DNA of 58,178 nt, the filler included, from Jimgerdemannia flammicorona (lineage: Eukaryota): NCBI GenBank assembly GCA_003990765.1. It is 3 parts of 3 records of this genome, joined end to end, with 100 filler letters (N's around TTAATTAATTAA, not from the genome) between each part and the next. Parts side by side here need not be neighbours in the genome. Positions count along the whole stretch, not along the records: positions 19,432 to 38,755 come from RBNJ01001967.1; 2 more parts are not named here. The stretch is one strand, 5' to 3'. The notes beneath the pieces were generated by a model. The model worked only from the letters and a program-made list of their open reading frames with translations, was not told where the DNA came from and ran no database searches. A program made the translations under genes and the position numbers. Shown here in pieces: positions 16,671 through 58,178 of the stretch. Position 1 is the stretch's first letter; the number at the start of each line of letters is the position of its first letter.

Positions 16671-16820
16671 GCTAAATGCTTAGGAGAAAATTGTTTTCCC
16701 TCGTTTTCAACTCACACATCTCTAGTGCCCTACTGTTTACTTAAGGCATCTCCACCGAGTGCTCCTCATCTCATACAAATATCCCCCATATCCTTATCCC
16801 TATAACAACATATTATTATC

Positions 16821-18423
16821 AATGGCAACAGCCTTCTATCCCGGTGAATACCTTTTCGACCATCAGATCTTCGATGATGGCTTCAAGGGAGCTTATTCCT
16901 CGTTTCTGCACGAAGACATGGCCGCCTTCAACGAAGTGAGCCACCACGAGTCTTTCGCGGACGCGTCCATCCCCGAGCGTATCGAAGACCCTACTCACAC
17001 ATCCTACTGTGAGCAGCCCGACTTCAATACCTCGCTGCTGGCGTTCTCTGCCACCTATGGGCAATCCAACTTGGGTTACACTCCCATTGCCGCGCACCCC
17101 TATGAACATGACTACAACTCGCCATACTTCTACCAGACCCCGCGACACGTCGATATGCCCAACCTGAAGCACTACGAACGTCGACCACTCACCATCGACA
17201 CCCATGATCACTCTTACCTCCACGCTGACACATGCGAGCTCGTCCCTCCCCCGGTGCTCTCGCCCACGCAACTCGGCTACCCCGAATCCGCTTCCGATGT
17301 CGATGACACAAGCAGCGAAGGATCCTCCGAACCCCATGAGTACTATGCTCCCGAAGTACAAGATATTCCCGATGCTCATCCCTCGATGGACCTGGCCAGC
17401 CCCGTCGGAGCGCCAGACCAGTTGTCCGGTTCTGAGTACGAGCTCTTCCGCCGCCACCCCCACTTCAACCTCTGGACCCAGCTGTCCTCTTCCTACACCG
17501 CCTCGTGCTCGCTGTCTAGCGACCGGAGGTCGCCTTCCCTCCTTACTTACATCGAGTCCCTCACCCAGAGCGCCTTCCACAACCTTGAGCTCGACACCTC
17601 CATGCACCCCTACGACAGTGTCATCCGTACTCGCATCATCGGCCTCCTCGAGGTCCTCATTGAGATGGTTGACTGTGGCCGTGAACGCATGCACTCCGGC
17701 GAGGATGACGAGTCCGCTGACATCGTCGATCTCAACATTGCCCGCTCTGACTTCTCCAACACCGCGAGTCCGACCATGACCACCATCACCCCGGATACCC
17801 TCAAGGCCTACTCTCCCATTAAGGAGGAGAGCGACTCCGACGACGCCGACGACGACGACGAGTGCCACTCTGGCGACAGCGACGCCGCCTGCAGCCCCAG
17901 CCCTGTCATGCACTCCCTCAAGCGCGTTAAGCGCGAGTTGCCCAAGGATGACGACGAGGACGATGAGGATGACACCGAGGGTTCATCCTGCGAGCACCCT
18001 TCCAAGAAGAGGAAGACCCGCGAGAATTACGACCGCAAGACCACCAAGGTGCTCATGGACTGGTTCCTCCTCCACGACGGTGTCTCCCCTAACCAGAAGG
18101 CTAAGGACGAGCTCTCCAAGGCCACCGGCAAGACCCCCGCACAAAGTAAGCATACTTTTACACATTATCTCTTCAAGCAACATTCACACTCCCAAAGCGA
18201 AACAAGAAACTCATCGTCTCTCCTCTCCTCCCCTGCAGTTGCCACATGGTATCAGAACGCCCGCCGGCGCTACCAGCAGAAGCTTCAGCGCTTCCGCCAG
18301 CTTAACTCGCACCACCCCTCTATGGTCTATGACTACGAGAGCTTCGACGCCTATGTGAAGGGCAAGGAATCCGAGCCCTGCCGCAAGCGCAACAAGGGCA
18401 AGCCCGACAGCAAGAACGCATAA
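16821..18423 (+). CDS. Homeodomain transcription factor (atypical, TALE-like), 2 exons
   Basis: Exons 16821-18145 and 18239-18423 with a 93-nt GT-AG intron. Spliced domain KRKTRENYDRKTTKVLMDWFLLHDGVSPNQKAKDELSKATGKTPAQIATWYQNARRRYQ; long acidic N-terminus; strong C-ending codon bias. Confidence 0.88.
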
Positions 18424-19331
18424 ATATAACCCCTAATCTCATGCTGCTGCGCTTTGGTTGCGCGGCGATCCTTATACAAGCCCTCGCTGGAGTTTGGAGG
18501 GCTTGGAAGCTTCTCAAAAAAAAAACACAGAAAACGAAAACGTTTTTGTCGCATCTACAGACGGCGGCTGTTTATATGGAGGAGTATGATGAAAGACAAT
18601 TAGACGATTATACAATTTTTGTTGGGTTTCCTCTACTTTCCTTTACATATTTCCTTTTCTCTTTAGACCTGTGAGACAAAAACTTGTATAAATCGATCTC
18701 TGTATACTTTTCCTTGATTTTTCTTTTCTTTTTTCTTTTTGCCGCTGGACACTTTTTTACATACTGCTTTTCTCTTGTACAATCCCCTTGTTTTTTTTTT
18801 ATCGTTTGCAATGTTTCTTTTTTCTCTGTTCTCTGCTTTCTCGCTAGTAAACCAAGGCTCGTTACATAGGCATGTACCATACATATTTATTCTATCGTCT
18901 CAGCCTTCTAGTTTTTGCTTTCTCTCTGTATTTCTGTCTTTCTTTCTCGTGTATTCTGTCGCCTGTACTGTACTGTATTTCTGCCTGTTTCCTATTTTCA
19001 AAAAAAAAAAAAAACACACCTAACAAAAGTTGCCTTCTTGGCTTTGTTTTGGCTTTGCCAATCCCAAACCTATTCGTTCTCCACGTTTCCCCCTTTTTTT
19101 TTCAAATGAGTGACATGCAGTCTAAAGTGACACATGAAAACGCCAAAGCCAAAAATTCTTGTGCGGCTTATCCGCTATCTGAACAAAAAGTAGGTGAACA
19201 CAAGGTTGGGTAGCGACGAATCACTTAAGGGGTACGACCCAACCTTGGCGGCGGGAGTACAAGGTAGAATTGTCATTGTGACAGGGCCGCGGCCGTTCCG
19301 TCGACAGGGGTATGTATTGGGAGGACAACGA

Positions 19332-19431
19332 NNNNNNNNNNNNNNNNNNNNNNNNNNNNNNNNNNNNNNNNNNNNTTAATTAATTAANNNNNNNNNNNNN
19401 NNNNNNNNNNNNNNNNNNNNNNNNNNNNNNN
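19332..19431. other. Artificial scaffold gap/linker
   Basis: 44 N + TTAATTAATTAA (stops in all six frames) + 44 N = 100 bp. Confidence 0.97.
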
Positions 19432-20513
19432 CCCTTACACTCTTATACTTGAAAACTAAATCCTAGTATCTGTATAGATATTTCTTGAAAAGTATCAATT
19501 TTAAAGCATGTGCCCTCATATCTGAAGAGACAGATATAGGTAATACAATTTCATTGACTATAACAATATTTGATTTATTCAGCTATATTGAAATACAGTC
19601 TCATCAAAAAAGAGGCCAAAATTTAGATAAAAAGTAGTATTTGCTCTTATACTATTATTATAGAAAGAGAGATTGTGGTTGCTGAACCAGATGAGTTCAT
19701 ACTCACTTATGATTTAAACTGAATTAATAGAAATCAGTCTCCATATATATAGAAGATTTATCTATAAATATCTCATCTCTTCTATATTAGACAATAGAAA
19801 AAACCTCTCTGATGAATATATCTATACATATCTTTACTTCTTTTATCAGAACATTATCAACAACTATCTAAGTATATTAGATACTATAGAATACTATTTA
19901 GGACCCTCTTATCAGTAGCTTTATCACATAGATACTACTTATATAGTATATTCTAAAACTGAACTAATATTTTATTAAATTTTATATTTTAATTATTTAA
20001 ATAAAAATACTTTATATAAATATATTATATTATATTATATTATAGTTTTATAAGAGATATTTAAAAATATTAAATTTATTATTTTTAAATTTTTATTTTA
20101 TCTTTAAAAAAAATTCTAAAAAAAATATTTATTAGTTCAGTTTTGGAATAAAATTATTTATAAATATTTTTTATTTAATAGATAGATAATAAATTGAGAT
20201 ATATATTTAAAACTTATTATAGTTATTCTATTAATATTTTTCTATAATTTCATATAATTTATTTTTTAAAATATATAAATATATATAATATATTATTAAT
20301 ATACTAAATTCAAAAATTAAAGTAATGATATTTTGTCTAAAGAAAACTATTTAAGTATACTTTCTACTTATAATAAATTATAATTTATTTATTAAATAGA
20401 TTAGTTATAATTTAAGATTATATAAATTATTATAGTATTAAATATATATATAAGAATAACAGAAGAATATACAGAACAGACTGATATTAGATGACTGGAA
20501 GTATAGTATTCTC

Positions 20514-22813
20514 TTTTTTTTTTTTTTTTTTTTTTTAACAGACTTAAAGTCTTGCAGATTTTTATTAGAAGAAAATCTAGACTATATAGGCTAAAACTCT
20601 CTTCTACTATCCACTGAGTACTATACTCTTATTTAATCTAAACTAGCTATTATTCAGTAGCTCAATCATATTAAATATAGTAGGACAAAATTGCTTATAT
20701 CTCATTCTGTATACTATGTTCTTTCTACTATCAGAAAGTAAACAACTATATACTTATGACTAAAGGTGCATATCTGAAATCTCAATATATATATAAGACT
20801 ATATCTAAGCTAATTTATATAGCCTCCACTATTCCAAAAGAAGTAATAGGTAAAGAAAAACCCTCCTTAAAGTACAGAATAGTAGATAGAATCTAGTTTT
20901 CTCCAATGAGATGAGTAGAAAACTTATATAAGATGAGAAGAGATCCTCAATATCATACTACTCAAGCCTGTGGGTCTCAATTTTATTACTATATCAGCTC
21001 TTAGTTCCAGTTAAGTATAACTAAGATATCTGATCTGAGTAGCCTCAGACCTCCTGACTATCTCTAATAACTGGGATCCAATCTTATATATTACTAAAAG
21101 TAGCTAAGAGTAATACATATCTACTATCTAACTATCTCTTACTAATTAGAAGACCCTACTGATATATATGTAGCACTCACTTTAGCTCTGATAACTACCT
21201 CTAGCCTAGCACTCTACTGGTTTATTGTAATTATTCTTCCTCTTATCTGTAATGATCATCTCCTCTCTCATCTTGACTCTATCTGAAAAACAGTTACCTA
21301 CACCAGCACTGTACTCACCAGAAAGCTTTCCAAAGCCCAGAGGGCTCCATCAAAGATACTGAGGATCTATAGATAATCTATACTTGTACTTGATACCCAA
21401 GGTCAGTTGATACTCTATATAGTTCATAATATACTAAGATAATATCTTATTGATGACAGTAAAAGAAAGAAGAGACCATATTAAAATAAGTATATCCTAG
21501 ATATAGTCAGAGATATCAGAAATTATGAAAAAGTAGAGAAAGCATAGATCTAATACTAATAAAGAGACAACTCATCACTATTGCCTCCCTCTCACTATAC
21601 ATATCTTTATAGATATAGCAAACCAATCTGAGATAGAAGAGATAAAGTCAGCTCCTTTCTCCGCTACCTTTCTGGTTACAAGGTTTGGTAGACAACCTTC
21701 TAAGTCCCCTTTCCCCTATTATTACCCCCTCTATCTCAGGTTGGTTTGCTGTACCTACAGAGGCATGGTGGGAGGAGGGCAATAGTGATAAGTTGTCCCT
21801 TTATCAGTATCAGATCAGTGCTTCCTCCACTTTTTCACAGATTCTGGTGCCTTCAGCTATATCTGGGGTATACCTGTTTTGGTGCAGTGCCTTCTTCCTT
21901 TTGCTGTCACCAACAAGGAGTTGTCTTGGTGTATCTTGGGCTACATAAGGAGTCAGCTGACCTTAGGCATCAAGTGCTCAGTGTAGGTTACCTGCAGGTC
22001 CTCAGTGCCTGTGGTAGGGCCCTCTGGCTTTGGCGAGCTTCCTGGCAAGTATGGTTCTGGCATAGGTGACTGTTTTTTGGGTGTTGTTGGGATGGGAGGG
22101 GAGATGGCCATCATAGATAGGAAGAAGGGCAATAATGGTAAACCAGTAGAGTGCCAGGCTGGGGGCAGTCATTGGGGCTGGGGCAGGTACTGCTTTGGTG
22201 GGGTCTTTTGATTGGTGCAGCACAGTTAGGTGGTAGGTATCACTATCAGCTTCTTTTGACGGTCAGCGGGGTTGGGCCCCAGTCATCAAGGGGGGTCAAG
22301 AGGCCCAAGGCTACCCATTTCAGGCATCTTAGCTGCACTCAACTAGAACCAGGAGCTGATATAGCAATATGATCAAGACCTGCAGGCTTGAGTAGTGAGG
22401 TATTGGGGGTTTCCTTCTGCCTCATGTGTAAGTTCTTTACTCACCTTGACTGGGAGAACCAGGCCCTACCTACCATATTGTGCTTTGATGAGAGTTTTTC
22501 TTTGCCTGTCATTCTCTTTGGGGTAGCAGGGGCTATTCTATTTGGCTCGGGCATGGCCTTATATATATGTTGGGTTCTCAGGCATGCACTTTCAGTCATT
22601 GGCATATGATTGGGTTTCCCCTGGTGGTAGGGAGAGCATGGTGTGTAGAATGAGGTGCAGGCCTAATTAGCCCTGCTGCACCTGATATAGTCGAGCTGCT
22701 GGATAATAGCTAGCCTAGGTTAATGGGGGGACAGTGCTTGGTAGGTGGTGGGGGAGGGTTTTGGCCTATATAGTCTAGGTTCCCTTCCAATAAAAATCTG
22801 TAGGACATGAGTC

Positions 22814-22849
<36 letters not shown>

Positions 22850-22931
22850 GAAGAGGTAAAGTAGAGAAAAGGAGACTTGGAAAGTTGCCTACCAATCTTA
22901 TGATCAGTATGGTAGTAGAGAAATAGATAAA
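20514..22931 (-). mobile_element. PolyA retroposon family B copy 1 (older, split by copy 2)
   Basis: PolyT at 20514-20536; body 20537-21648; 5' end resumes at 22863-22931; TSD TATAGTAT(T/C)CTCT at 20502-20514 and 22934-22946. Confidence 0.85.
21649..22847 (+). mobile_element. PolyA retroposon family B copy 2 (youngest, full length ~1.2 kb)
   Basis: 30-A tail at 22818-22847; AATAAA at ~22789; 16-bp TSD ATAGAAGAG(A/G)TAAAGT at 21633-21648 and 22847-22862; no recognisable coding capacity. Confidence 0.9.
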
Positions 22932-23799
22932 TATATAGTATCCTCTAATAAAACAAAATCAACTACTTTAGATCTTATATAATATATATATCTTTTTCTA
23001 TTATCTTTAAATTTTATAATCAATTGATGTTATATAACTTTTTTCATATTGAAAATACTTTAAACTGACTATAAATACTCAAACAGTATATTATTATTAT
23101 CTCAAATCTCTAAGATACTATAAAATTGAATCAAAGATATAAAATATCACTTAATATAAGTTATATAATATTAATTGACTAAAATTTGAAGATAATAGAA
23201 AAAGACAAGAATCTAAAATAATTGATTTTTGTTTTATTAGAGGATACTATATACTTCTAGTTACCTAATATCAGTCTGTTCTGTACAGTATCTATTTATT
23301 CTCCTATTATTCTTATAATATATTTAATACTATAATCAATTTATTTAATAAATAAATTATAATTTATTATAAGTAGAAAGTATACTTAAATAGTCTTCTT
23401 TAAATAAAATATCATTGCTTTAATATTTGAATTCAGTATATTAATAATATATTATATATATTTATATATATTTAAGGAAAGTTTTTTTATTATTTTTTTA
23501 AAAGATAAAATAAATGAGATTTTAAAAAAATAAATTATATAAGATTATAGAGAAATGTTATAAGAATAACTATAATAAGGTTTAAATATATATCTCAATT
23601 TATTATCTATCTATTAAATAAAGAATATTTATAAATAATTTTATTTTAAAACTAAACTAATATTTTTAAATACTTCTAATATAAAACTATAATATATTAT
23701 AATATAAAATATATTTATATAGAGTATTTTTATTTAAATAACTAAAATATAAAATTTAATAAAATATTAGTTTAGTTTTGAAATATACTGTATTATATA

Positions 23800-25198
23800 A
23801 AGATGATAAGATTTGTAAGTTTCTTAGTACTGATGATGGTAAAGTCAGCAAGCTCAATCTTTCAAAAAGTATAACTAATATTATTTGATATGACCTAGAG
23901 AATATTATATCTTTTTTTTTTTTTTAGAAAACAAGTATATAGATTAATAGTTAAAATAAATTAGATAAGAAAACTATTAAAGTATAAGTCTTTATAGTTA
24001 TAAATTGATAAAATAGATATCATCTGATATAGAAAATAATAGTCTATAAGATAAAAATACTGAATAGATAAATATTACTAAATAAGATAGATATATAATA
24101 GTAGTATTATAATTAGAGTCAAAGAGATTAAGTATATAGAGAGTAGTTAGTAGATACAAGAGGGTATATTCTGATATACTATTATATTATTCATTATCCT
24201 ACAATATCTCTAGCTCAAGTATCTCAAGATAATAGTAGCTATTAAAAAGCTGAGTAAGAGAATATTGATTAATATATATAATATAAGATAGTTATAGATT
24301 AATAATAAGAAAATAAATATTAAATATTATACTTCTACTATAGTTATATAGTTCTAACCAGCAAGACTTCTGTTTTTATTAATAGTATTATAGTATGGAT
24401 CTAGCTTATTATAAAGGTAGTGGGAATTAATATTATATAGTAAGATCTGATGATAGAGTACTTAAGTAGCTTTAGTATCAAAACTATAGCTAACTAAAGT
24501 ACAGGGGTGAAGACTGATATAATGTAACTTAGGGCTATTCTTTTATAATTAGAGAATATCAGAGAGATACTCTAGAATAATATAGAAAATATCATTATAA
24601 ATAATAAAAGATTAATCTGCTCTTTACTAAAAAAAATAAACCAAAAAATCTAAATATATATATATTTATATATATATCTAACTAAGATTAGCTAATAGAA
24701 TATACTATAGAATTCTACTATATCTATAATTATATATAATATTTGCTGTGAGATAGGCTAGTGATAGATAATTAGAAGATCTAGTTCTGCTCTCTATGAT
24801 AAGAAGTGGAAAGATATGAGAGAGCTGCTTTAGATGAGAAGAGTTGATAAATTATAGTATATATAAGAGATTCTGGTAGGATATTGTAGAGGTCTAGCTG
24901 GCTATGAGGTTGACAGAGCCTAAAGTTGAAGAGGAGGTAGGTACTAGACAGTAGTGATAGAGATTAGAGCTACTCCAGATTGGTGGCAGAATATTAGAGA
25001 AGTATTCCTTGAAAGAGGTCATAAAATGAGCTAGAATAGAGCCTCTTGAGAGATAGTCAGTAGATTGGTAAGCTGCTGGAATTGGTGAGATATAAGAGTG
25101 AGAACAGATTTAGCATTAGATAACTACTTTATACTAAGTAGTATCCTCTTGATACTGGATCATATAGTAGTAGTTTTTGAGGAAAAATGTAATACTGA
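23800..25198. mobile_element. Heavily decayed transposon relic, host of the LTR insertion (continues at 35645-~37900)
   Basis: AT-rich and CpG-free, with similar purine-skewed composition on both sides of the ACTGA target duplication. Confidence 0.45.
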
Positions 25199-27161
25199 TG
25201 TAAGAGAGTTACTTTTTAGGGTGACCATTACGTAGTTCTGGAAGGGTTTTCTGAAAGTTCTGGATATTCTGGAAGACCGTTTTCTTATGGTCAAGATCAA
25301 TTTCATATGGAGTACATCCTCTACGCTTATTGATTTCAAGATCGGGTTGACGTCTCAACCAAAGTCCTTTTTCGGACTAGTTCTGGATGTTCAGGATTTT
25401 CCATATTTCAGGAAGTTCAAGAAACTAAGACCAGCTTAGTTGAATTGGCATATCGCTGCAGACAATACCCAATTAGGAAATTTCGTGAGTGGGTTAGGAG
25501 TGAGACCTAACAGGGAGTGGATTTACTTAAAAGTGGTTTGCGGGTTATGGAATAGGTTTATTTGCTATTCATGATGCTATACTAGAAGTAGTTGTGTGAA
25601 GGAGTATTTGTGGGGAAGTGCTCAGGAGTTGCATTCGGATTCAAGTCTGAGATTCTGAGGTCTGGGGGAGGGGGTATTTATACTAGTGAGGGGCTATCTG
25701 GACTATACTAGATATGGATGTAGCACTAAGTGCCTTGCTGAGTCAGAATACAGTCATGTAGTACAAGGCTAATCTATCTATACTATGACTGCTAGACTAT
25801 TTATAGGTTTAGACACTATCTGGGTAGTCTTCGATGACATCACCATCAATTGCATCATCTCTGATGAAGTAGTCATCTAGGAAGAGTGGTTCATGGATTA
25901 CTTCTCCTTGTTGGCTGAGGTAGTAATACATTAGGACTTCATCTCCATCCCACAGGATAGCATCATCTGTTTCATATGCTGGATAAGGTGTTGGTGGATG
26001 AAGGATGGGTATATCATCTTCGCTTTCATCAGATTCACTATCTGTATACCTTCTATAGGTTACGGCACTATGAGTTGCGGGGTTATAGTATGCTGGTGGC
26101 TGTAGTTCATGTCACTCGTACTCGGGTGGTAGAGTGGTTGGTTCGATCTCGAGGGTTGTCTGAAGGTACAGGTTGTGTTCTCCAGTCTCTTCATTATAAT
26201 TGAAGTAATCGGGGGTGAATGTGGGTTGGTATTCATGCCAGTGGTCATTGTCCCAATAAGTCTCGTATGTGGTTATAAACTGTTGTAAGTTCATCGGCAA
26301 GGTTGGCGGTGTGATCAGGGTTGGCAGAGATCCTTGGCTAGAGGTCATGTCGGCATCAGAGGGATCATTGTCTTCTGCTTCATCTTCGTCGAAGTGGATT
26401 ATATCGTAGACGTCCTTCATGGCATATCCAACTTGAGGCATTTGCAGGATATGGTCATCAGGGTGTGAGAAGGTTCTGTCTGTGGTCTGGATGTATTCGA
26501 GGTACTTGTGGTTGAGTTCTTGTATCATGTCATCGATTTGGCCATAGGACAGGGTAGCAACCATTTCGCTGGTAGTAACTCGGAGGCAGGGAATAAAGGT
26601 GTTGTACTTGTAGAAGAGTTCTCGATATTTGCGGGCGATGAGCTTCTGGTGTTGAGACATCTGGGTAATGTCTGTATCGTAGTGGTATTCGATCATATCT
26701 TCCAAGAGGTGGCCGATCTAATAGTAGCTTGATATTTGTCCAATCCGGTGGGCCTTGTTAAGCATATTCAGGGCATTCCATTGGGCTTTCATGAAGTAGA
26801 GGGGTGCTAGGCTATGGATATTCATGAGGGGCAGAGGGGGTGTGGCTCGGTTGACAATGGCATTCCAAATATCAGCGCAGATATGGTTGTAGATCTCAGT
26901 GGTCATGTTGTGTATTTGGAAGTTGTAGTTGTTGTTTGTTTTGGTTCTCTGATTTGGCGCATCTTGGTGCTTGGTATATATGCATTTAGTCCTGATTGGT
27001 AAGATTCTGTTTGTGCAAATCTTGTGTTCCATGACTTCGTATTGACTCGGCTTTGTGCGCTGTGACTTCAGTTTGACTCAGCTTCGTGATCAAGCAGGTG
27101 ATTTCTAGATTTATTCAGAGGTTGCGTGTAATTTCGGTGGCTTGGAGGTTGTGCGCTTACA
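25199..27161 (-). repeat. 3' LTR of element 1
   Basis: TGTAAGAGAG...GCGCTTACA; high identity to 33680-35644; minus-strand TATAAATA at 25675-25682 and AATAAA at 25557-25562. Confidence 0.95.
25809..26906 (-). pseudogene. LTR-embedded ORF (365 codons), 3' LTR copy, unknown product
   Basis: MTTEIYN...IEDYPDSV* in one frame with two premature stops (TAG at 26718, TGA at 26112). These are CAG and CGA in the other LTR. Confidence 0.8.
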
Positions 27162-27174
27162 ACTCTCCCCTTCT
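27162..27174 (-). other. Polypurine tract
   Basis: AGAAGGGGAGAGT directly before the 3' LTR on the minus strand. Confidence 0.85.
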
Positions 27175-27589
27175 TAGCTTTCGACGTCCTCGTCGGGGCC
27201 TTCTAATTTGTTCTAGTGTTGTTACACTGTTTGGAAGGTCAAAAGTCTGGTAAGGTCCATTTTCTCAGAAAGTGGCATGCTCATAGTACAGTTGCCTAAT
27301 GCATTGGATTCACATGTTAAAGGGTCGTGTATTCGATGCCGTGCACCGGAAGTGATTCTGACGTCATTCACTGCTGGAGAATTTCCTCTAAGGAATCTTC
27401 TTAAATGTCTACGCCTCGTTTCCCACCAGTGGTATGGGGAGAATAGGCTTGCTTTCAGTTTTGCTATTTTTCCAGAGGGTCGGTATTCTTGTCTTGTTTT
27501 GCTGAGTTCTTGACTTGGTTCATGATAGTTATAATGTTCAAGAGGGTAATATATAGCGTATATGGATAGGTGCAGAGTATTTGGTTCTA

Positions 27590-30500
27590 GTTGTTCAAGG
27601 AATCATATTCCTGAACTAGGTTGGTAGCATTCTGAAGGTTGGTCTTGGGTTCCCAGGTTGCATCATGGATTGGGTAATCTTTCCATTTGACAAGGTACTC
27701 AGGATGGTTCTTGTTGCCATGTTTGTTGAGAATTTGTTCAACTTCGTACTCTTCTTAGTCATTGATGATGACAGATACAGGTGGTTTGGTGGTCCTGTTT
27801 GGAAATAGCTCATCATCATTGTCATTGTATCGCTTGAGATGTTGAACATTAAAGACTGGGTGAATCTTAATGGTGTCCGGTAGCGCTAGTTTGTAAGAGG
27901 TTGGAGAGACTTGTACAATGACTTCAAATGGTCCAGTGAACTTGCTGTTCAACTTTGTGGATGGTCTGTGCTTGAGGTTGTCAACTCAGTATCCTCTGAT
28001 GTCTAGTAGGACTTTTTCTCCAATATCAAAAGTTTCTTCTCGGCGGTGCTGGTTAACATACTGTAATTGTTGTTCTTGAGCTCGTGATAAATTCTCAATG
28101 GCAATCTGGCTTAAATTGCACATTCGGAGTAAGAGTTCTTCAACAGCTTCGACTGTGGAGGGTTCTTCAGTGGTTCGGATAAGTGTCAATGGGGTGTTTG
28201 GATTTTGTCCAGTGTTGGCAAAGAATGGGGTCATTCCAAGAGAGGCTTGCTTGCTATTGTTGTAGGCAAACTCAACTGCGGTGAGGTGTTCATGCCAATC
28301 ATCTTGTCTGTAGGAGACATAGTTCCTTAGCATTTGTTCCAGAGTTTGGTTCATTCTTTCGGTTTGGCCATCGGTTTCAGGGTGAAAGGCTATGGATAGT
28401 GCAAGTTTTGTTCCAAGGTGTGTATGGAGGGCTTTCCAAAAATGGCTGGTGAATTTTGGATCTCAGTCACTAACAATGATCTTAGGAAGACCATAATAGT
28501 GGAAGATGTTGTCAAACAAGAGTGTGGCTATGTCTGGTGCTATTGCAGTAGTGGTAGTAGGCACAAAGTGGGCTTGTTTGCTGAGATAGTCCACAAAGAC
28601 AACAATTGCATCTTTTCTATTCTTGGTTCGCAGTAGTTGTACAATGAAGTCCATAGAGATTTGTTCCCAATTTGCAGATGGTACTGGAATAGGGTGGAGT
28701 AAGCCGGGTTTTGCTAGTGTTGAGGACTTGTTTCGTTGGCAGGCATCACAGGAAGTGATATAGGTTTTGAGCTGATCTGCCATGCGGGGCCAATAGAAGT
28801 TTCGGGAGATAACTTCATAGCATTTGTCAAATCCTAAATGTCCAGCTGTAGGGGCATCATGACATTCGAATAGGATAGTCCTTCGGAGGTCTCGGTTGTT
28901 TGGAACATACAATCTGTCCTTGTAGTAGATAGCATTGTCCTTGAGTTGGTATTGATTGTACTGGGTATGCTTGTCAGCATCGTCATTGTTCAGGATTTCT
29001 CGGAGTGCTTGAGCTTCTTTATCATCAACATATGCTGCGATGATTTGTTCCATAATAGTGTTGGTAACTAAGATCAGAGTTTGGATAACCTCTTTGATTG
29101 GTGGTCTGGAGATTGCATCAGCAACAATATTTTCCTTACCAGGGCAGTACTGGATTTCGTAGTCAAAGTTGGTGAGGACTTTCATCCATCTGGCTTGCTT
29201 TCAAGAAAGGGTAGCCTGGGTCTTGATATTGACTAGTAACTTGTGATCAGTTAATACAGTGAAGTGTGCTCCTTCTAGGTATGGTCGCCATTTGATCAGA
29301 GTGTCTACAATGGCTAGCATTTCCTTCTCATGAGTTGCGTAGTTGATTTCAGCATCATTGAACTTGCGGAGTGATAGGCCACAGGGTGTCCTTCTTGCAT
29401 GAGCACTGCTCCAAGAGCTAGGTCAGAGGCATCAGTGGTGACTTCATATGGTAGGGCAGGGTTTGCTGCTTGAAGTACTGGTGTGGTTATCAGGGCATCT
29501 TTCAGTACTTGAAAGGTGGTATCTTGTTCGGGTCCCCAATTTACAAGATTGTTGAAGTCCTTCTCTTGTTTCATGGTCCAGGGTTGTTCTTGTTTCTTGC
29601 TATGCTTGGTCATTTGGGTGAGGGCGGTAGCGATTTTAGCAAAGTTGGCAACAAATTGCCTATAATAGTTTGCTAATCCCAGGAATGACTGGAGGTCTTT
29701 CAGCTTCTTGGGTCTGGGCCAATTCTTGATTGCAGAGATTTTGCTGGGGTCTACTTTGATTCCATTCGGAGTGACAATGTGTCCAAGGAATTGAATTTCT
29801 TTCAGAAGAAATTTGCACTTACTGAGTTTTGCAAAGAGTCTGTTTTCTCGGAGTTTCAGTAGTACTAGTTCAAGGTGTTCGAGATATTCCTCCAGGGTTT
29901 TGCTGAAGACTAGGATGTCGTCAATGTAGACAATAACAAATTTATCCAGGTATGGATGCAGAATAGTATTCATCAGTGTCTGGAAGGTTGCTGGAGTATT
30001 AGTTAAGCCAAAGGGCATAACCAGGAACTTGAAGTGTCCATAGCAAGTTTGAAAAGCTGTCTTGTAGATGTCTTCTTCTTTCATGGCAATCTGCCAGTAA
30101 CCATTTCGCAGGTCAAAAGAGCTCATAAATTGTGGGTTGGTGAGTCTATCAAATATTTCATCAATTCTTGGTAGTGGGCAACAGTTCTTGATGGTCTGTT
30201 TGTTGAGATCATGGTAGTCAATGCACATTCGTAGGTCTCCTCCTTTCTTGACAACAAAGAGGACTGGTGTACCATAAGGTGATATGCTGGGTCTGATGAA
30301 TCCTTATTCTAGGAGTTCGTCAATTTCCTTCTTGAGTGTATCAATTTCTCTCGGAGATATGTGGTAGATTGACTTGAAGGCTGGTTTGGCATCTGGGATA
30401 GTCTTGATTGCATAGTCTACTGCTCATTTGAGAGGTAGGCCTTTCAGGAGCTTCTTTGGGAATATGTCTCGGAATTTCTGGAGTAGTGGTCTGACACGGC

Positions 30501-33500
30501 TGTCAACTTTGAAAAAATCTTCTTCAGAGTTCTCGGGTTCTCCTTTGGATGGTCAGATGGAGATGGTGAAGAGAGGGCATTTCTTGGCCAATTTCTTGAG
30601 TTATAGCTTATTGATGTGGGTGATCTTTGGTCCAGGGTCACTAGAGTTGAGTGGGTCCTTTTCGCCTTGTAGTTTGAAGTTGTGGCGTCCTTTCTTGATG
30701 GTCAGAGAATGGTTTACCCAATCAATCATGGAGTTCTCTTGTTTTAACCATAGAGTCCCAAGGATGATTTCATTGTCAGGAAGTGGTACGATTTGGAGGG
30801 TAACATATACTCGGTAGTCGCCAATTCAGAAGGGTAGATTGCGGACTTCTTTGCTAATAATATGTGAGGTTCCATCAGCTATAGCAACTGCTTGAGTTTG
30901 CTGTACCGGGGAGGTGAAGACCTTAAGTCTGTTGGCTGTCTCCTCATTAATGAAGTTGCCTGAGGCACCACTGTCTATCATAATCTTGACAGGTACTCTG
31001 TTGATGAAAGCCTTAAGGGTGAGCAGTTTGTCTGATCCAATGCTGGTGATTTCAGTTATAGGAGCCTTTCTTCTGTTGGTTCTTCTTTGAGCCAGTTTGT
31101 TGATACAAGAGAAGCAATCATCAATCATTCAGGAAGAGTACATTCCAATACTATGAGGGCATCAGCCACTTGGTACATATCCATTTTCTATCTTCTTGTA
31201 GAATTGCTCTTCTTTGCTTATCGTAGGTTGGGCTGGGGCTTTGTTTGATGAGCCAAATCCTTTAGATCCTCAGATGGTAGGCAGTAGCTCAGGGACTTCC
31301 TTGACTATCAGGGTTGACTCGATTTTTTCGAATAGGATCTGGGTGATGCAGAAGCCAATAGGGATCTTGAAGGGTGTCCAACTGTGGTTTCAGATGAGAA
31401 TAATAATTTCGCCTGTATAATCCTCATCAATGACTCCTCCTTCTACTGAGAGTCCTTTCAGTGTTAGGCTGCTGTGACAGCATATTCTTCCAACATGTCC
31501 TTTAGGGATTTAGATACTGATTCCTGTGTAGACTTGTTTGACTTCTTGGTTGGAAACTGTAGCTTCTTCGGCTGTATACAGGTCATATCCGGCTGCTTTT
31601 TGACTTCCTTTGGTTGGGGCCTTAGCAGTTTGTCTTAACTTGACAAAGTCCAGTATTCTGGTGGTCAGGTTGTTGAGGTGGTGCAGAGTGGTAACAGTTG
31701 CTCATGTTGCTGTTCGTGGTTTTCGGTTGGGGCAGGCACTGGCCATATGTCCTGTCTTTTGGCAATAGAAGTATGCTCTGCTTCTTCGAAGTTCATTTCT
31801 TTCGCCTTCAGTAAGTTTCTTGAAGGTACTTGGCTGGGTGGGTTCATGATTTCTGGGTGTCCAAGAGGTGGATGTGGAGGGAGCTCGGGATGCTTCATGC
31901 TTGGGTTCTTCTTTCTTGGTCCAAGTCCTTTCCTTGTTGTTAAATTATCTTCGGGGCAGAATTGGTCCAGCTGTTAGAATTCGCTTGACCATGATTTTGA
32001 TTCTTGCTAGGCACCATTGTTGGTAGTCACAACCAACTGGGCGGCCTTGTTCTCGGATTTTTCTGGTAAGCCATTCAGGCAGGGCATCAAATAAATGGTC
32101 TGCTCTTGTACCATTTCATGCTTCATCATTGGTGATGTATCCTAAGCCAACAGTGTTCAGGAGTGACTCGAGTTTTGTACAGAAGGTTTCGAATTCTTCT
32201 TTGCCATGTACATCAAATTTGAGGTTGTAGAGTTTTACTCGGGATTCGGCAATCATGGTTTCGCTGCGATATTGAGCAATCATGAGTTGTTTGAGTCCAG
32301 GGGCTGCAGGATGGGCTCCATATCCTGGGGCATTGTTTGCTGCATTCTGGGCAACTACTGCAGGTCAGGTATCCCAGGTGAGGGATTTTTCAGGAAGGGT
32401 TTGCCACCATTCTTCAGCAGGTCCTCGGAAGAATGTAACAACTTGGTGGACATAGGCTGTAGTTGTAGCAAAGAGTTGTTCTAGAGTGTGATCTTGATTG
32501 TTTGTCAGAATATGGTCAGCAACTCACTCATTAGTCCATTGATTGGCTTCGAAGTTGGTGTCAACTATACTAATGAAGCTTTGGACTTCTTGTGCAGTAC
32601 CATTGAAGATAGGTAGGCTCAGATTTTTGGTAGGTCGGGTCTGTTCAGCTAAGGCAGTAATGGTTGCTGCCATTATAGCTACTTGAGCTGTGAGTTCTAG
32701 AATCTGTTGGTTCGCCATATTGTTTACTGGAGGTGGTTAGACTGCTGGTAGTGGTGTTACTGGTACTACTTGAGGTACTGGTGCAGAGTGTAATGGGGTT
32801 CTTTGGGTCTGTGTAAGCTACTGGAGTAGTAGTTGTGGGTCTGGAGTGAGGGCTTAATAGATAGCTGTTTGTTGCTGTGTAGGTGTATTCTGTCCTGATG
32901 GATGTGTGTCTCCTTCAGTAGTGTATCTGGGATCGAATTCAGTGAGATACTCCTCCTCTTCTTCGGTTTGGTCTCTGTGTAATTGGGTTTGCTTGGCGTC
33001 AAAGTAGATAGAATCAGTTGTGTATCTAATTTCAGATGGACTTAATTCAAAGTCAAGTTCAGGTTCAGTATTGGTTTCAGATTCAGGTAGAGTTGTAGCA
33101 GGGCCTGGTTCAGGTTCGGGGTCAGGTAGTTGATGAAGGGTCTCTCTTGCTTCTTCTTTAAGGATATGGCGGGCCTTGCTGTTCTGGAATCGGTAGTATA
33201 ATGCGGTCTTGGTCCTGGTGCAGTGAAAGTCAGTAGAGTTGAGCCACTTGGCTACAGAGGCTTGGGCTTCGTGAGGAACTAAGGCTAGAAAGACTGTTGC
33301 TGGTTGTCCTAGGTCGCTCGGATTTGTGGAGCTGACAAAACTCTTGTTAAGAAGAGTAAAGAAGGCTTCAATAAGACCTTCTTCATCTTGACTTGCTGGG
33401 TGTAGTGTAAGGAGTTCGGTGAATAGGGATTTGCCTATTTGCTGGTTTAACCAGAGTACTTCTTTCTTTGAATGAAGTTTATTCCACTTGTTGCAGGTGT

Positions 33501-33627
33501 GGAGGTCAAATTGCCCTTGTATGTCAGGTTCAATTCTCTCCAGATTGTCAGATGGTTCGGATAAATTCCAGTTCAGAGGTTGGGCTTTATACCAACTTGT
33601 AGGAATTCTCAGAGGGGTTTGTAGCAG
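27590..33627 (-). pseudogene. Gag-Pol polyprotein of element 1 with multiple premature stops
   Basis: Gag MANQQILEL (32718); knuckle (C>Y)FYCQKTGHMASAC (~31730-31772); dUTPase (~31245-31655); protease MIDSGASG; RT VYIDDILV; RNase H TTDASDLALGAVL; IN HDAPTAGH...CDAC, SMDF, IVSD, GPF; chromodomain YEVEQIL...YLVKWKDY...TWEP. Confidence 0.93.
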
Positions 33628-33664
33628 GGTGAGGAAGCGTCTTGAAGTGGAATTGGATTGTAAA

Positions 33665-33677
33665 CCACTGCTACTAA
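33665..33677 (-). other. Degenerate primer-binding site, possibly tRNA-iMet
   Basis: TTAGTAGCAGTGG starting 2 nt after the 5' LTR; two substitutions away from a TGGTAGCAG(C/A)GG-type PBS. Confidence 0.5.
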
Positions 33678-33679
33678 GT

Positions 33680-35644
33680 TGTAAGAGAGTTACTTTTTAG
33701 GGTGACTATTACGTAGTTCTGGAAGGGTTTTCTGGAAGTTCTGGATATTCTGGAAGACCGTTTTCTTATGGTCAAGATCAATTTCGTATGGAGTACGTCC
33801 TCTACGCTTATTGATTTCAAGATCGGATTGACATCTCAACCAAAGTCCTTTTTCGGACTAGTTCTGGATGTTCAGGATTTTCCGTATTTCAGGAAGTTCA
33901 AGAAACTAAGACCAGCTTAGTTGAATTGGCATATCGCTGCAGACAATACCCAATTAGGAAATTTCATGAGGGGGTTAGGAGTGAGACCTAACAGGGAGTA
34001 GATTTACTTAAGAGTAGTTTGCGGGTTATGGAATAGGTTTATTTGCTATTCATGATACTATACTAGAAGTAGTTGTGTGAAGGAGTATTTGTGGGGAAGT
34101 GCTCAGGAGTTGCATTCGGATTGTTCAAGTCTGAGATTCTGAGGTCTGGGGGAGGGGGTATTTATACTAGTGAGGGGCTATCTGGACTATGCTAGATATG
34201 GATGTAGCACTGAGTGCCTTGCTGAGTCGGAATGCAGTCACATAGTACAAGGCTAATCTATCTATACTATGACTGCTAGACTATTTATAGGTTTAGGCAC
34301 TATCTGGGTAGTCTTCGATGACATCACTACGATTGCATCATCTCTGATGAAGTAGTTATCTAGGAAGAGTGGTTCGCGGATTACTTCTCCTTGTTGGCTG
34401 AGATAGTAATACATTGGGACTTCATCTCCGTCCCACAGGATAGCATCATCTGTTTTGTATGCTGGATAAGGTGTTGGTGGACGAAGGATGGGTGTATCAT
34501 CTTCGCTTTCATCGGATTCACTATCTGCATACCTTCTATAGGTTACGGCACTATGAGTTGCGGGGTTATAGTATGCTGGTGGCTGTGGTTCATGTCGCTC
34601 GTACTCGGGTGGTGGAGTGGTTGGTTCGATCTCAAGGGTTGTCTGAAGGTACAGGTTGTGTTCTCCAGTCTCTTTATTATAATTGAAGTAATCGGGAGTG
34701 AATACGGGTTGGTATTTGTGCCAGTGGTCATTGTCCCAATAAATCTCGTATGTGGTTATGAACTATTGTAAGTTCATTGGCAAGGTTGGCGGTATGATCA
34801 GGGTTGGCAGAGATCCTTGGCTAGAGGTCATGTCAGCATCAGAGGGATCATTGTCTTCTGCTTCATCTTCGTCGAAGTAGATTATATCGTAGACGTCCTT
34901 CATGGCATATTCAACTTGAGGCATTTGCAGGATATGGTCATCAGGGTGTGGGAAGGTTCTGTCTGTGGTCTGGACGTATTCGAGGTACTTGTGGTTGAGT
35001 TCTTGTATCATGTTATCAATTTGGCCATAGGACAGGGTAGCAACCATTTCGCTGGTAGTAACTCGGAGGCAGGGAATAAAGGTGTTATACTCGTAGAAGA
35101 GTTCTCGATGTTTGCAGGCGATGAGCTTCTGGTGTTGAGACATCTGGGTAATGTCTGTATCATGGTAGTGTTTGATCATGTCTTCCAAGAGGTGGCCGAT
35201 CTGGTAGTAGCTTGATATTTGTCTGATCTGGTGGGCCTTGTTAAGCATATTCAGAGTGTTCCATTGAGCTTCCACGAAGTAGAGGGATGCTAGGCTATGG
35301 ATATTCATGAGGGGCAGAGGAGGTGTGGCTTGGTTGACAATGGCATTCCAAATGTCAGCGTGGATACGGTTGTAGATCTCAGTGGTCATGTTGTGTGTTT
35401 GGAAGTTGTAGTTGTTATTTGTTTTGGTTCTCTAATTCGGCGCATCTTGGTACTTGGTATATATGTATTTAGTCCTGATTGGTAAGATTCTGTTTGTGCA
35501 AATCTTGTGTTCCGTGACTTCGTATTGACTCGGCTTTGTGCGCTGTGACTTCGGTTTGACTCAGCTTCGTGATCAAGCAGGTGATTTCTAGATTTGTTCA
35601 GAGGTCGCGTGTAATTTCAGTGGCTTAGAGGTTGTGCACTTACA
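33680..35644 (-). repeat. 5' LTR of element 1
   Basis: TGTAAGAGAG...GCACTTACA; direct repeat of 25199-27161. Confidence 0.95.
34293..35389 (-). pseudogene. LTR-embedded ORF, 5' LTR copy
   Basis: 208-aa ORF-track entry. The frame continues past one TAG (34763; CAG in the other LTR) through PPPEYERHEPQPPAYYNP; there is a 1-bp deletion near the C-terminus. Confidence 0.8.
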
Positions 35645-35733
35645 ACTGAGTTATTAGATAAGCTGAATAGAGATAGATAGTTGTTGAGATTATAAGTAGT
35701 ATACTGAGCTCTATAGAGAGATAACTCAAATAT

Positions 35734-35795
35734 ATTTATTTATAGACTGGTAATAAAGGCGGAGTCCAAGTGACTATATAAAAAAAAAAAAAAAA
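35734..35795 (+). mobile_element. 62-bp severely 5'-truncated non-LTR retroelement insertion
   Basis: AATAAA, polyA tail and a perfect 17-bp TSD AGAGATAACTCAAATAT (35717-35733, 35796-35812). Confidence 0.85.
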
Positions 35796-37929
35796 AGAGA
35801 TAACTCAAATATCAGAGTATATCTTGATAGTCTGCTCTAGAGTAGAAGGTTATTAGTAGAGTCTAGAGGAGTATTAGGGCTCTAGATATAAGAGGTCTGA
35901 GGATTCTGTCAGTATAGTAATCTAGAGATAGTTAGTGGGAGAGATTGATAATATTTGGGGTAGCATTAGTCAGATTTTGAGAGTATGAGTCTTGATAATA
36001 TTATACTAATAGTAGATCTTTGAGAGTATTCATTAGATAGAAATTAGAGAGTTAATAGAGGGATAGCAATAGTTTTTTTGAGAGGTAGTACAAGAGTAGT
36101 AGTATCAGAGAAAGCAGTAAGAGATTGGGGCTATAAAGAAGATATAAGATATTATTTTGAAGAGCCAGGGTTATTTAGTATTGAGTAATAAAGGAATATA
36201 GTAAAAAGTCAATATTGATTAATTGTCTTTTTGGAACAGTCAGTTGACCTTTCCTTAAATAGAATTTTTGCTAATAGTCAGTGGATCTATAGATTATATA
36301 TTGTTTATAGATTTTATTTTAGGGTAATAAAGAAGTCTGAGTGATTATAAAATAATAATAATAATAATAATAATAATATAATATTTACTATAGATAATAA
36401 TAATAAAAGCATAACTGAAAAACTAAAGTCTATAAATATATATATAGTATAGTAGATATAGAGTATATTCTAAGATACCATTACTATTTAGCTAAATATA
36501 TTAGACTAATATATACTATCTATCTTTATTATAACTAGACTGCTTGACTATATTACAAATAGTATATAATATATAGTCAATATATTAACTATATATAATA
36601 TATAGTCTGCAGACAGTATATCAGTAAAAATATATATAATAGTATCTAAATTACTCTATAGTAATTGTAAAAGAGTTTGGAGTAAGCATATATATATAAT
36701 AAATATATAATTATTTAAATCTATTATTTAGTATTTTTATCTTTTATATAAAATTATATATCAAAAGAATAGACAATACTTTTTAACTATATTATATATA
36801 TAGTTATAGAATAAAATTTATAATCTGTATTATTTATTTTTAATAATAATTATACTTTATATAAGTATACTGTAATATTTTTAGCTTCTCTTTACTATTA
36901 CTGTAATATTATATGCTATTTCTCTATATTTGTTCTTTATATCTATATCTATATTTAATTTATTTATATATAAGAAGTAGAACAGTTATATCTATTATCC
37001 ATTTTTCAATTTTACAACTTAATGAACAAAGTGAAAATAAGCTATTTCCCATACTGCATAATGAAGTAATATCTTACCAAAAAGAGTTGATAGTAGTATC
37101 AAACTTATAGATAAGTATTCTGATAAGATCAGTATCTATATAATATAGCAAGATATAATATATAATATTCTCTATCTATAACTTTTATATTTATACTAAT
37201 TTAGCTATTTTTCAGCAAAGCTTATATAGTATCAATATGACCACTCTTATAAGTATAGTATAAAGTACTCTGATAGTTACTTATAGATATATTAGTATAT
37301 AGTAATAATATAACCTTATAGTAATTATAGTAGACTACAATTTATAGTAGAGTTATAGTAGCTATAAAGTTACTGGTCTCTGAGCTAATACTATAGTTAT
37401 AAAGCATATATACAGTATTATAGCAACCATACTTAGTATTATATATATATAATACTAATATAGTACTATATCTAATAGTATCAATATCAGTACTAAGTTT
37501 ATATATAAGAATGATAATAATATAGATATTGTTCTTAAATATAGCTATATATAGTGAACTATAAGGTGTGATACTATTAGTTGATATATCAATTGTATAG
37601 TAGTCATTGATAGTTCTTTTAGTACCAAATTTTTGCTCTTTTAACTATTTTCTTAGAGTAGTATATTGCCCATCTTCATATAGTATGAGTGACACCCACA
37701 GTATAGCTATAGCTAATGAAGCTACTGGCAAGAGGGTTTTAAATGGTGTCCTATAGTGTCTAATACATTTGGGTGGTTGTTGGCAATGTTCTGGTAGAAG
37801 AAGTGGAGACATAGATATATCTATCAGAGAGGTTCTTTCTATTGTCTAATACAGAAGAGATGAGATATTTATAGATAAATCCTCTAAGTATGTATGTGTG
37901 GAGACTGATTTCTATTAATTCAGTTTAAA

Positions 37930-38755
37930 TCATGAGTGGGTGCGAACTCATCTGGTCCAGCAACCACAATCTCTCTTTCTATAATAATATAGTATATAGG
38001 AGCAAACGCTGAATAAATCGAATGTCGTCACAGCCAATGAAATTGCGTTGCCTGTATCCCAAGGATACAGCCTCGGTGTGAGGGCACGTGCTCTGAAATT
38101 GACGCTTTCCAAGCCTATGCAACCGGGCCTGTAGGAGGGAAACCCCTCAAGTATTTACTAGTCGATAGGCAAGGATGTAGTATAAATAGTGGACCCCCGG
38201 CTTGAAATTCAGCCCCTTTTCAAGCCTCCCCAGTGGCCCCGCAATGCTTTTCTTAGTCCATATAGATATTCCGTGCATATCCCATGATCAATTTTTGTGG
38301 AACTGTCACACCAGACACGAACCTTACCGCAAGCCACACAACATACTTGTATCGCTTGTTGCTATGTAACTATCTGTTGTACAAGCCAGTTGATCGCTTG
38401 TTGCTATACACCCCTGCTTGTTGCTATGTGACCATCAGCTCCGCACCTTCGCACCAGGTTCCAAAGTCGAAAGTAGGTCAAAATGAATACTGGGCACATC
38501 ACCCGATATCAAATTTCAAAGTTCCCAAATTCATATATAAAGGCTTGCTCAGAGTTATCGATTTCCAATCATCCAAGTTATTCCATCATGGATATTTACT
38601 GCCTGAACACGACTCCGCACCCCGCACAGATCTCTTTGAAACTTCCTGATGGGACCGAGATTTGGAATGGTAACTTTGTTAACCTTATTCTAATGTCTAA
38701 CATATACCAGAAACTATATTTAAGCGTCTAACATTACCATGCTTGTGCTCTTGCT
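37930..38755 (+). other. CpG-retaining promoter/LTR-like segment at the contig end
   Basis: CCAAT (38034), TATAAATAG (38181) and three GCTTGTTGCTAT repeats (38354, 38396, 38416); no recognisable protein. Confidence 0.3.
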
Positions 38756-38855
38756 NNNNNNNNNNNNNNNNNNNNNNNNNNNNNNNNNNNNNNNNNNNNT
38801 TAATTAATTAANNNNNNNNNNNNNNNNNNNNNNNNNNNNNNNNNNNNNNNNNNNN
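38756..38855. other. Artificial scaffold gap/linker
   Basis: 44 N + TTAATTAATTAA + 44 N. Confidence 0.97.
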
Positions 38856-46861: not shown

Positions 46862-47186
46862 GATGGGAAAAACGATGTGCAGGGATCTAATTATGTAGAC
46901 GAGTTAGCTTTGATTGATTCGTTCTTCGTGTAAGAAAAAGAAGAAAAAAAGAGATGGCATTATCGTCATAGAGAAAAGATTTATTGGTTCCTGTCTAGAT
47001 ATCCAGATCTCTAACAACATCAGACCAATGCAAGGAGGTTATTGTCTATGACTGTTGAATTTAGATGCGACCAAAAAAAATTTGTCGTGATTATCTCCAA
47101 TCTCTTAAAGGCCGTCGCGTCCCCCTTTCTCTTCATTCTCTTCATTCTCCCTTCCTCCCCTATCCCCTACTCCCATTCAACCCACC

Positions 47187-57939: not shown

Positions 57940-58178
57940 GAGGTTCGCGAAGAAAGCAAGGGTGTAGTGGGGGGGGTGGAAGTGAGACACAGGGGCACAG
58001 TAAGGGTGGGCGGCAGGGGCGCGTGATTCTTTTTCGCGAAGCAGTTGACGTAGGCCAATGAATTTCTTTGTTTGGTCATCATTTCTCTCCTCCCACTCCC
58101 ACTCCCACTCCCACTCACCCCCCCCCCAACTCTCGTAACAACTAATTAAAATTACCACGTGCCAGTCAACTACGCCGG

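Follow-up and report, generated by a model that had tools for sequence, protein, structure and literature searches.

Can a fungal retrotransposon's long terminal repeat (LTR) carry a protein-coding gene of its own? Fungal gypsy LTRs are usually far shorter than 1.96 kb, the length of the two LTRs studied here. They belong to a full-length chromovirus of 10,446 bp (25199-35644, minus strand) in a 58,178-nucleotide stretch of DNA from Jimgerdemannia flammicorona (GenBank assembly GCA_003990765.1). This stretch, hereafter the window, joins three parts of three records with 100 filler letters between each part and the next; positions 19,432 to 38,755 come from RBNJ01001967.1. A first, sequence-only reading had proposed that both LTRs hold, in their U3 region, the same open reading frame (ORF) with an intact consensus. 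We find that this U3 frame is probably a genuine protein-coding gene of the element family, ~365 codons long, and judging from sequence evidence we put the probability at about 0.65. The frame and its surroundings are laid out as follows.

25199..27161, minus strand: 3′ LTR (left in the window), TG..CA ends, 1963 bp
33680..35644, minus strand: 5′ LTR (right in the window), TG..CA ends, 1966 bp as BLAST alignment length
25808..26906, minus strand: U3 ORF, 3′-LTR copy, 365 codons plus TAA (ATG at 26906, TAA at 25808-25810)
34292..35389, minus strand: U3 ORF, 5′-LTR copy (ATG at 35389, TAG at 34763-34765, 1-bp deletion near 34329)
25675..25682, minus strand: TATAAATA, presumed promoter of the genomic RNA, with the U3/R border probably ~30 nt downstream
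25557..25562, minus strand: AATAAA, putative poly(A) signal in R, from reading the sequence
26975..26999, minus strand: CCAAT (26995-26999) and TATATA (26975-26980), motifs of a candidate internal promoter 70-90 nt upstream of the ORF ATG

The ORF lies wholly inside U3 on the sense strand of both LTRs, between the LTR start (27161) and TATAAATA (25682). It begins after 255 nt of LTR, and its stop stands ~125 nt upstream of the LTR TATA and ~250 nt upstream of AATAAA. The left copy contains two internal stops, TAG at 26718-26720 and TGA at 26112-26114, and the right copy the TAG listed above. Each of them is Q or R in the opposite LTR copy, and all three are products of C>T/G>A change. A reconstruction choosing C or G at every difference between the LTRs is open for 365 codons. 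The sequence-only reading is borne out in most of this: its coordinates for the frame starting MTTEIY (26906 and 35389) and for the stops (26718 TAG, 26112 TGA, 34763 TAG) were confirmed, the stops do differ between copies with the codon intact in the other LTR, and the consensus is open as it had claimed. TATA (25675-25682), AATAAA (25557-25562), CCAAT (~26995) and TATATA (~26977) were all found where it had placed them, and coordinates and domains agree with its view that a chromovirus carries an ORF in the U3 of each LTR, ahead of both the TATA and the poly(A) signal there. It had also let the frame run to ...EDYPDS in each LTR, which is correct for the left copy only; it had overlooked that one base pair is deleted from the right copy (alignment column ~1395), ~13 codons short of the end, and because of this ...EDYPDS is out of frame there.

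Could such a frame stay open without coding for anything? It might be a passive relic, or might be open by luck, the LTR being A/C-rich and poor in stop-prone codons, and would then be unselected and make no protein; its relatives in databases would then be copies that stayed open by chance and were called for that reason. The low stop count argues against this, as the ORF frame contains three stops (two internal ones and the terminator), the other sense frames 17 and 33, and the antisense frames 21, 8 and 25. A best frame with three stops or fewer was met in 0 of 2000 mononucleotide shuffles. Codon usage points in the same direction. With a codon model for which 732 codons from this element's pol served as training data, frame 1 scored +0.21 per codon in the left ORF and +0.196 in the right, and gag, an untrained control, scored +0.17. 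The pol-like signal is specific to frame 1: frames 2 and 3 of the ORF scored about -0.33, and three non-coding stretches (both LTR flanks and the pol 3′ untranslated region, UTR) were negative in all frames.

Codon usage also bears on a second alternative, namely that a fragment of a host or foreign gene was captured into U3 by template switching, being coding in origin and useless to the element. An LTR far longer than is usual in fungal gypsy elements would fit such an event. Extra ORFs captured by LTR retrotransposons are described for bdelloid elements (PMC5408684) and for brtn in Botrytis Boty/BcGypsy1 (PMC8365987). When pol usage was set against that of host exons, the U3 ORF came out pol-like (+0.156 per codon), as did gag (+0.325), and a held-out host exon scored -0.199; the ORF thus resembles the pol of its own element and is unlike the host exons in the window.

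Relatives of the predicted protein were sought with HMMER by reading all 1.84 billion cluster representatives, which yielded two true relatives, P0002 and P0003; word-indexed searches agree with this. P0003 (128 aa, 1180-bp contig) shares the MTTEIY start and has Q at the first stop; its identity is 86% with the left copy, rising to 93% when it is compared with the reconstruction. Single transitions account for 17 of its 18 differences, so it is a member of this family that has been mutated less. P0002 (247 aa, 998-bp contig) is 66% identical across residues 115-364, shares the C-terminus of the U3 ORF (...YPDS-x-stop) and has two gaps, both in frame. Of its 82 differences, 40 would take a transversion or several changes to explain, so it represents a diverged separate lineage and not a variant made by repeat-induced point mutation (RIP). 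Short blocks common to P0002 and the LTR protein are PHPDDHILQMPQV, FTPDYFNYN, GEHNLYLQTT, PPTPYPAY and YFIRDD. In a neutral simulation, in which the P0002-aligned segment received random point mutations down to 67% identity with indels left out, stop-free outcomes numbered 4 at kappa 2 and 12 at kappa 6, each out of 1000 runs. A relic staying open by chance would thus be expected in 0.4-1.2% of cases, and P0002 is open to the same terminus. The conservation of the frame between two diverged lineages also speaks against capture, as does the result that no homolog beyond these two element-like fragments appeared among the cluster representatives, and we regard a captured fragment as quite improbable.

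Further searches were run around these relatives. For their DNA, pattern matches were obtained among metagenome, viral and genome contigs alike, and none was confirmed by tblastn. An alignment-based search among proteins of 30-69 aa only gave no relatives, and a single-protein homologue search returned P0003 alone. P0004, a 436-aa repeat protein in which a 38-residue stretch matched six times (whole-library E 2e-9), was rejected as a relative, the score being judged repeat-inflated; its Pfam matches are spurious short stretches only. The P0004 cluster (P0005-P0018) is a metagenome family built from tandem repeats of ~68 residues (...LSFDKIADFIEKLN...), its contigs reaching 138 kb, with a weak match to residues 111-149 of the LTR protein.

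Variation within the family was taken from metagenome contigs of four runs (X1, X2, X4 and X19), of which X19 may be an RNA run, aligned on 25000-28200 at a likeness of at least 80%. Thousands of related short contigs match this stretch, and the family appears abundant in soil-metagenome contigs. Differences from the window are mainly transitions (332 of 363 places in X1). Listed variation covers 12 indels out of a total of 26 places, and 40 substitutions out of 634. Within it, 0 of the 12 indels fall inside the ORF, whose share of the stretch is 34%; each of them is found either in a non-coding flank of the LTR or in the pol 3′ UTR, an avoidance that argues against a passive relic. Among the 18 best-supported ORF substitutions, nine are at places where both LTRs agree and the contigs differ, and these divide into five synonymous and four nonsynonymous changes. 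A loose end at 25767, ~40 nt 3′ of the ORF stop, occurs in 13, 3, 4 and 2 contigs of X1, X2, X4 and X19, respectively, where the contigs of all four runs depart from the window into a common different sequence. This break could come from a subfamily whose U3 ends differently, or from a spot rich in indels. The idea of the ORF as a swappable module bounded by loose ends was abandoned, as inspection by eye of the loose end that X19 shows at 26962 suggests the same leader after heavy C>T divergence and not a border.

The two LTRs, the sole two copies within the window, are 94.9% identical and differ by 96 transitions, 1 transversion and 4 gap columns. Changes are divided between left (49) and right (47). 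With the C- or G-bearing allele taken as original, they are distributed by context as follows.

CpA: 48 of 283 sites changed (17%)
CpG: 33 of 148 sites changed (22%)
CpC: 13 of 219 sites changed (6%)
CpT: 2 of 253 sites changed (0.8%)

The LTR differences are the result of RIP or RIP-like deamination of duplicated LTRs and not of clock-like drift, so the divergence between the LTRs is unusable for dating the insertion. The CpG share of the changes could also come from methylation-driven deamination. Together with the AT-rich blocks around the element, the RIP-like signature would more likely suggest a host in Dikarya, probably a filamentous ascomycete, than one in the Mucoromycota, whose genomes the sequence-only reading had proposed to search. 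By the composite RIP index the element stays below the usual thresholds (TpA/ApT 0.81); it is only lightly affected by such indices, and its flanks heavily (TpA/ApT 1.15-1.23). Inside the ORF, the changes between the LTRs amount to 23 synonymous, 39 nonsynonymous and 3 stops, which indicates no selection since insertion. The internal frames of the element are likewise broken by many stops, and the copy in the window is dead, inactivated by RIP-like deamination.

The protein predicted from the U3 frame is strongly acidic (pI 4.25; D+E 64 vs K+R 16), rich in Tyr (32) and Pro (27) and nearly Cys-free, and no hydrophobic segment was seen by eye. Low-confidence prediction places helices within the first ~150 residues, and the remainder is low in predicted structure. 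Profile searches against Pfam and PDB gave no recognizable family: Pfam returned only RAMP for the LTR protein (E 0.14, under the cut-off) and nothing for P0002 and P0003, and the PDB profile search only SKA1 (E 0.69). An Atlas search gave no usable match, an F-box cluster at 0.88 being below the 0.9 bar. The Atlas model of P0002 has a pLDDT (predicted local distance difference test) of 0.39. A duplicate of the element's own gag or leader was considered as the source of the ORF and discarded (best BLASTP E 1.4). From its composition and predicted structure (acidic, Tyr/Pro-rich, largely unstructured, with a helix-prone N-terminal third), the product would most likely be a regulatory protein that works through binding to other proteins, and not an enzyme.

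Several observations weigh against a selected gene, and part of them is what a relic or chance frame would lead one to expect. Only two relatives were found among ~15 billion proteins, both of them fragments on contigs of ~1 kb (998 and 1180 bp) in which the LTR setting is not visible, and the thousands of related copies form a pool from which open ones could be drawn. P0002 and P0003 are in the database through gene-caller open frames, which weakens the argument from the simulation. The first residue of P0002 aligns with M115, so what precedes it may be broken or lie beyond the contig. Conservation of the ORF by selection is suggested from two protein fragments as relatives, and from listed variation that covers part of the contig differences. 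The changes in this copy look neutral. The LTR protein matches no family in the Pfam, PDB profile or Atlas searches and has no known domain, and its models are of low confidence: AlphaFold 2 (AF2) with a 4-row alignment gave a mean pLDDT of 32.9 and no confident fold. PPxY motifs of the window copies (PPEY at 260, PPAY at 270) are not kept in P0002. Pol-like codon usage, finally, could be explained in part by a shared RIP history. Set against the stop count, the frame-specific codon signal, the divergence of P0002 and the position of the indels, these points leave a relic or chance frame improbable in our view, and we retain a protein-coding gene of the element family as the preferred reading.

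A gene inside an LTR presupposes that the repeats are true LTRs. An assembly artefact, or a recombinant or tandem element, might instead have placed a former internal ORF3 in a repeat; N runs in the window and a second fragment of a related kind of element nearby would agree with this. The features of the element are as follows.

25199..35644, minus strand: full-length inactivated chromoviral Ty3/gypsy LTR retrotransposon (paired LTRs, Pfam domain order, many stops in internal frames)
35645..35649, minus strand: target-site duplication TCAGT, upstream copy (alignment reading)
25194..25198, minus strand: target-site duplication TCAGT, downstream copy (sequence reading)
27163..27175, minus strand: polypurine tract AAGAAGGGGAGAG, adjoining the 3′ LTR (sequence reading)
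33665..33676, minus strand: putative primer-binding site 3′ of the 5′ LTR, TAGTAGCAGTGG in the window and TGGTAGCAGTAG in related contigs
31246..31626, minus strand: dUTPase domain, between gag and protease (PF00692, E 1.9e-29)
30685..31038, minus strand: aspartic protease (RVP_2 / gag-asp_proteas)
29773..30249, minus strand: reverse transcriptase (RVT_1, E 1e-32)
29165..29538, minus strand: RNase H, split across two frames (RT_RNaseH / RT_RNaseH_2)
27827..28897, minus strand: integrase with H2C2 zinc finger, core and SH3_Tf2-1 (Pfam)
27602..27748, minus strand: chromodomain at the integrase C-terminus, downstream of SH3_Tf2-1 (PF00385, E 3.5e-15)

Read on the minus strand, the LTRs start with TGTAAG and end with TTACA, giving the TG..CA ends, and the 5-bp TCAGT duplication is perfect and borders both LTR ends. 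The polypurine tract stands on one side of the internal region and the putative, tRNA-like primer site on the other. This site reads TGGTAGCAG... in related contigs and carries a transition in the window; in those contigs U5 runs on into the same primer-site sequence (X2 loose end at 25201). None of the N runs is within the element. Against this structure, false LTRs are very improbable indeed. A Pfam scan of the internal region in three frames, with X placed at stops, gave the minus-strand order dUTPase, aspartic protease, RVT_1, RNase H, Integrase_H2C2, rve, SH3_Tf2-1 and Chromo. A CCHC knuckle was seen by eye upstream of the dUTPase, and gag is also present. On its LTRs and duplication, its order of protease (PR), reverse transcriptase (RT), RNase H and integrase (INT), and its chromodomain, the element is a Ty3/gypsy chromovirus (Metaviridae, Chromovirus). 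A 280-codon stop-free frame lacking an ATG (32854-33696, minus strand) runs from the last 17 nt of the 5′ LTR towards gag; it is in the gag frame, contains acidic stretches and has no Pfam match, and may be an N-terminal gag extension that lost its start to RIP.

The element sits in an AT-rich block (GC content 0.23-0.30) amid gene-bearing DNA of GC ~0.5. The flanks (18500-25198, GC 0.29, TpA/ApT 1.15; 35645-38000, GC 0.25, TpA/ApT 1.23) look like old, heavily RIP-degraded repeats, and a scan of the minus strand of 18500-25198, the only flank and strand covered, detected no coding remains by Pfam. The second retroelement fragment (~38860-41000, minus strand) contains a CCHC knuckle, an aspartic protease and then a dUTPase, an order unlike that of the main element, to which it is unrelated by BLASTN; it ends at the N runs of 38756-38855. 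There are four N runs of 44 N each, in two pairs at 19332-19431 and 38756-38855, resembling masked stretches or assembly gaps. Three intron-split long frames elsewhere in the window look by eye like a homeobox protein (16726-18423, plus strand), an argininosuccinate lyase (47109-49208, plus strand) and an RNA-dependent RNA polymerase of the RNAi pathway (53811-58176, minus strand).

How would a gene in U3 be inherited and expressed? In LTR reverse transcription, the U3 at the 3′ end of the genomic RNA is the source from which both LTRs receive theirs. A gene in U3 thus reaches the two ends of the cDNA and is duplicated at every retrotransposition, and it would travel with the element as an accessory gene. 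In the copy studied here, C>T/G>A deamination hit both LTRs about equally and created all three stops. In live copies, transcription might start from the CCAAT/TATATA motifs ~70-90 nt upstream of the ATG and end with polyadenylation at the LTR's AATAAA ~250 nt downstream of the stop, which would make any LTR an expression unit. Alternatively, the gene could be expressed from a 3′-coterminal RNA begun at the 5′ LTR promoter. On these motifs we tentatively favor an own CCAAT/TATATA promoter, at less than even odds, and find a 3′-coterminal RNA more doubtful. Both LTRs also have an upstream ORF of 19 codons (26904-26962, minus strand; ATG at 26962), whose TGA shares bases with the main ATG (ATGA). 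If a transcript begins at the TATATA (26975-26980), this short frame may be located upstream of it.

With low confidence, we suggest that the product would help the element in a regulatory or adaptor role, for example by activating transcription from the LTR or by weakening host silencing. In its most far-reaching form, which we think unlikely, the proposal is that the LTR of a soil-fungal chromovirus lineage would be a self-contained gene with promoter, 365-codon ORF and own poly(A) signal. Any LTR, whether 5′, 3′ or solo, would in that case express on its own an acidic, disordered protein serving the element, for example by LTR transactivation or by antagonizing host defence (RIP, quelling, methylation). 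If true, no LTR-borne accessory gene of the sag/tas kind would precede it outside retroviruses, and in fungi it would represent a counter-defence factor encoded by a transposon. More generally, if the gene is real, an LTR, a solo LTR included, can be a protein-coding unit beyond its role as promoter, and fungal elements may encode factors dealing with host silencing. For annotators, it is a reason not to mask long fungal LTRs as non-coding.

Extra ORFs as such are familiar from Ty3/gypsy elements, fungal ones included, as in brtn and the additional ORFs of plants and bdelloids. Their reported position is internal, either upstream of gag or in the stretch from pol to the 3′ LTR, and not inside the LTR, brtn being antisense. 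For example, brtn is an extra ORF of Botrytis Boty/BcGypsy1 (PMC8365987), a figure legend on fungal gypsy elements marks an 'add. ORF' (PMC2864245), and bdelloid LTR retrotransposons have additional ORFs (PMC5408684). The chromovirus crapaud of Podospora resembles the present element in being a fungal chromovirus that is subject to RIP and whose LTRs vary in the U3 half, forming subfamilies with a variable 5′ (U3) half; it differs in that its diagram legend gives two ORFs, gag and pol, and mentions no LTR ORF (excerpts of PMC10787394). A dUTPase in the polyprotein is shared with other fungal gypsy elements, namely Tmt1 of Tuber, PosPlaTy3 of Postia and elements of Phanerochaete, a likeness confined to the internal region, as the available part of that source mentions no LTR gene in them (PMC2864245). 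In the full-text literature searched, with subscription journals mostly outside it, no U3-borne ORF in a fungal LTR retrotransposon was reported. An ORF inside U3 is otherwise familiar mainly from retroviruses.

The closest parallels come from retroviruses. In mouse mammary tumor virus (MMTV), sag is a sense ORF, several hundred codons long, that fits entirely within U3 in each LTR; it lies upstream of the LTR promoter and ends before the R poly(A) signal, and the fungal U3 ORF has the same layout. MMTV is a mammalian betaretrovirus with env and the host of the fungal ORF an env-less chromovirus, with no sequence similarity between the two; sag is a type II membrane glycoprotein, in contrast to the acidic, predicted unstructured product of the fungal frame. 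The nef gene of human and simian immunodeficiency viruses (HIV/SIV) and tas/bet of foamy viruses are also 3′ accessory genes with coding sequence running into U3; they overlap it partly and start internally, whereas the fungal ORF and the 255 nt upstream of it lie wholly in the LTR, and again there is no similarity. Foamy viruses have an internal promoter, and their Tas is an LTR transactivator, which makes it a working model for an acidic LTR-borne protein. U3 accessory genes are a hallmark of complex retroviruses, usually regarded as an advance over simple retrotransposons. A gene conserved in the U3 of a fungal chromovirus that lacks env, if true, would mean that LTR retrotransposons can evolve the same genome economy independently.

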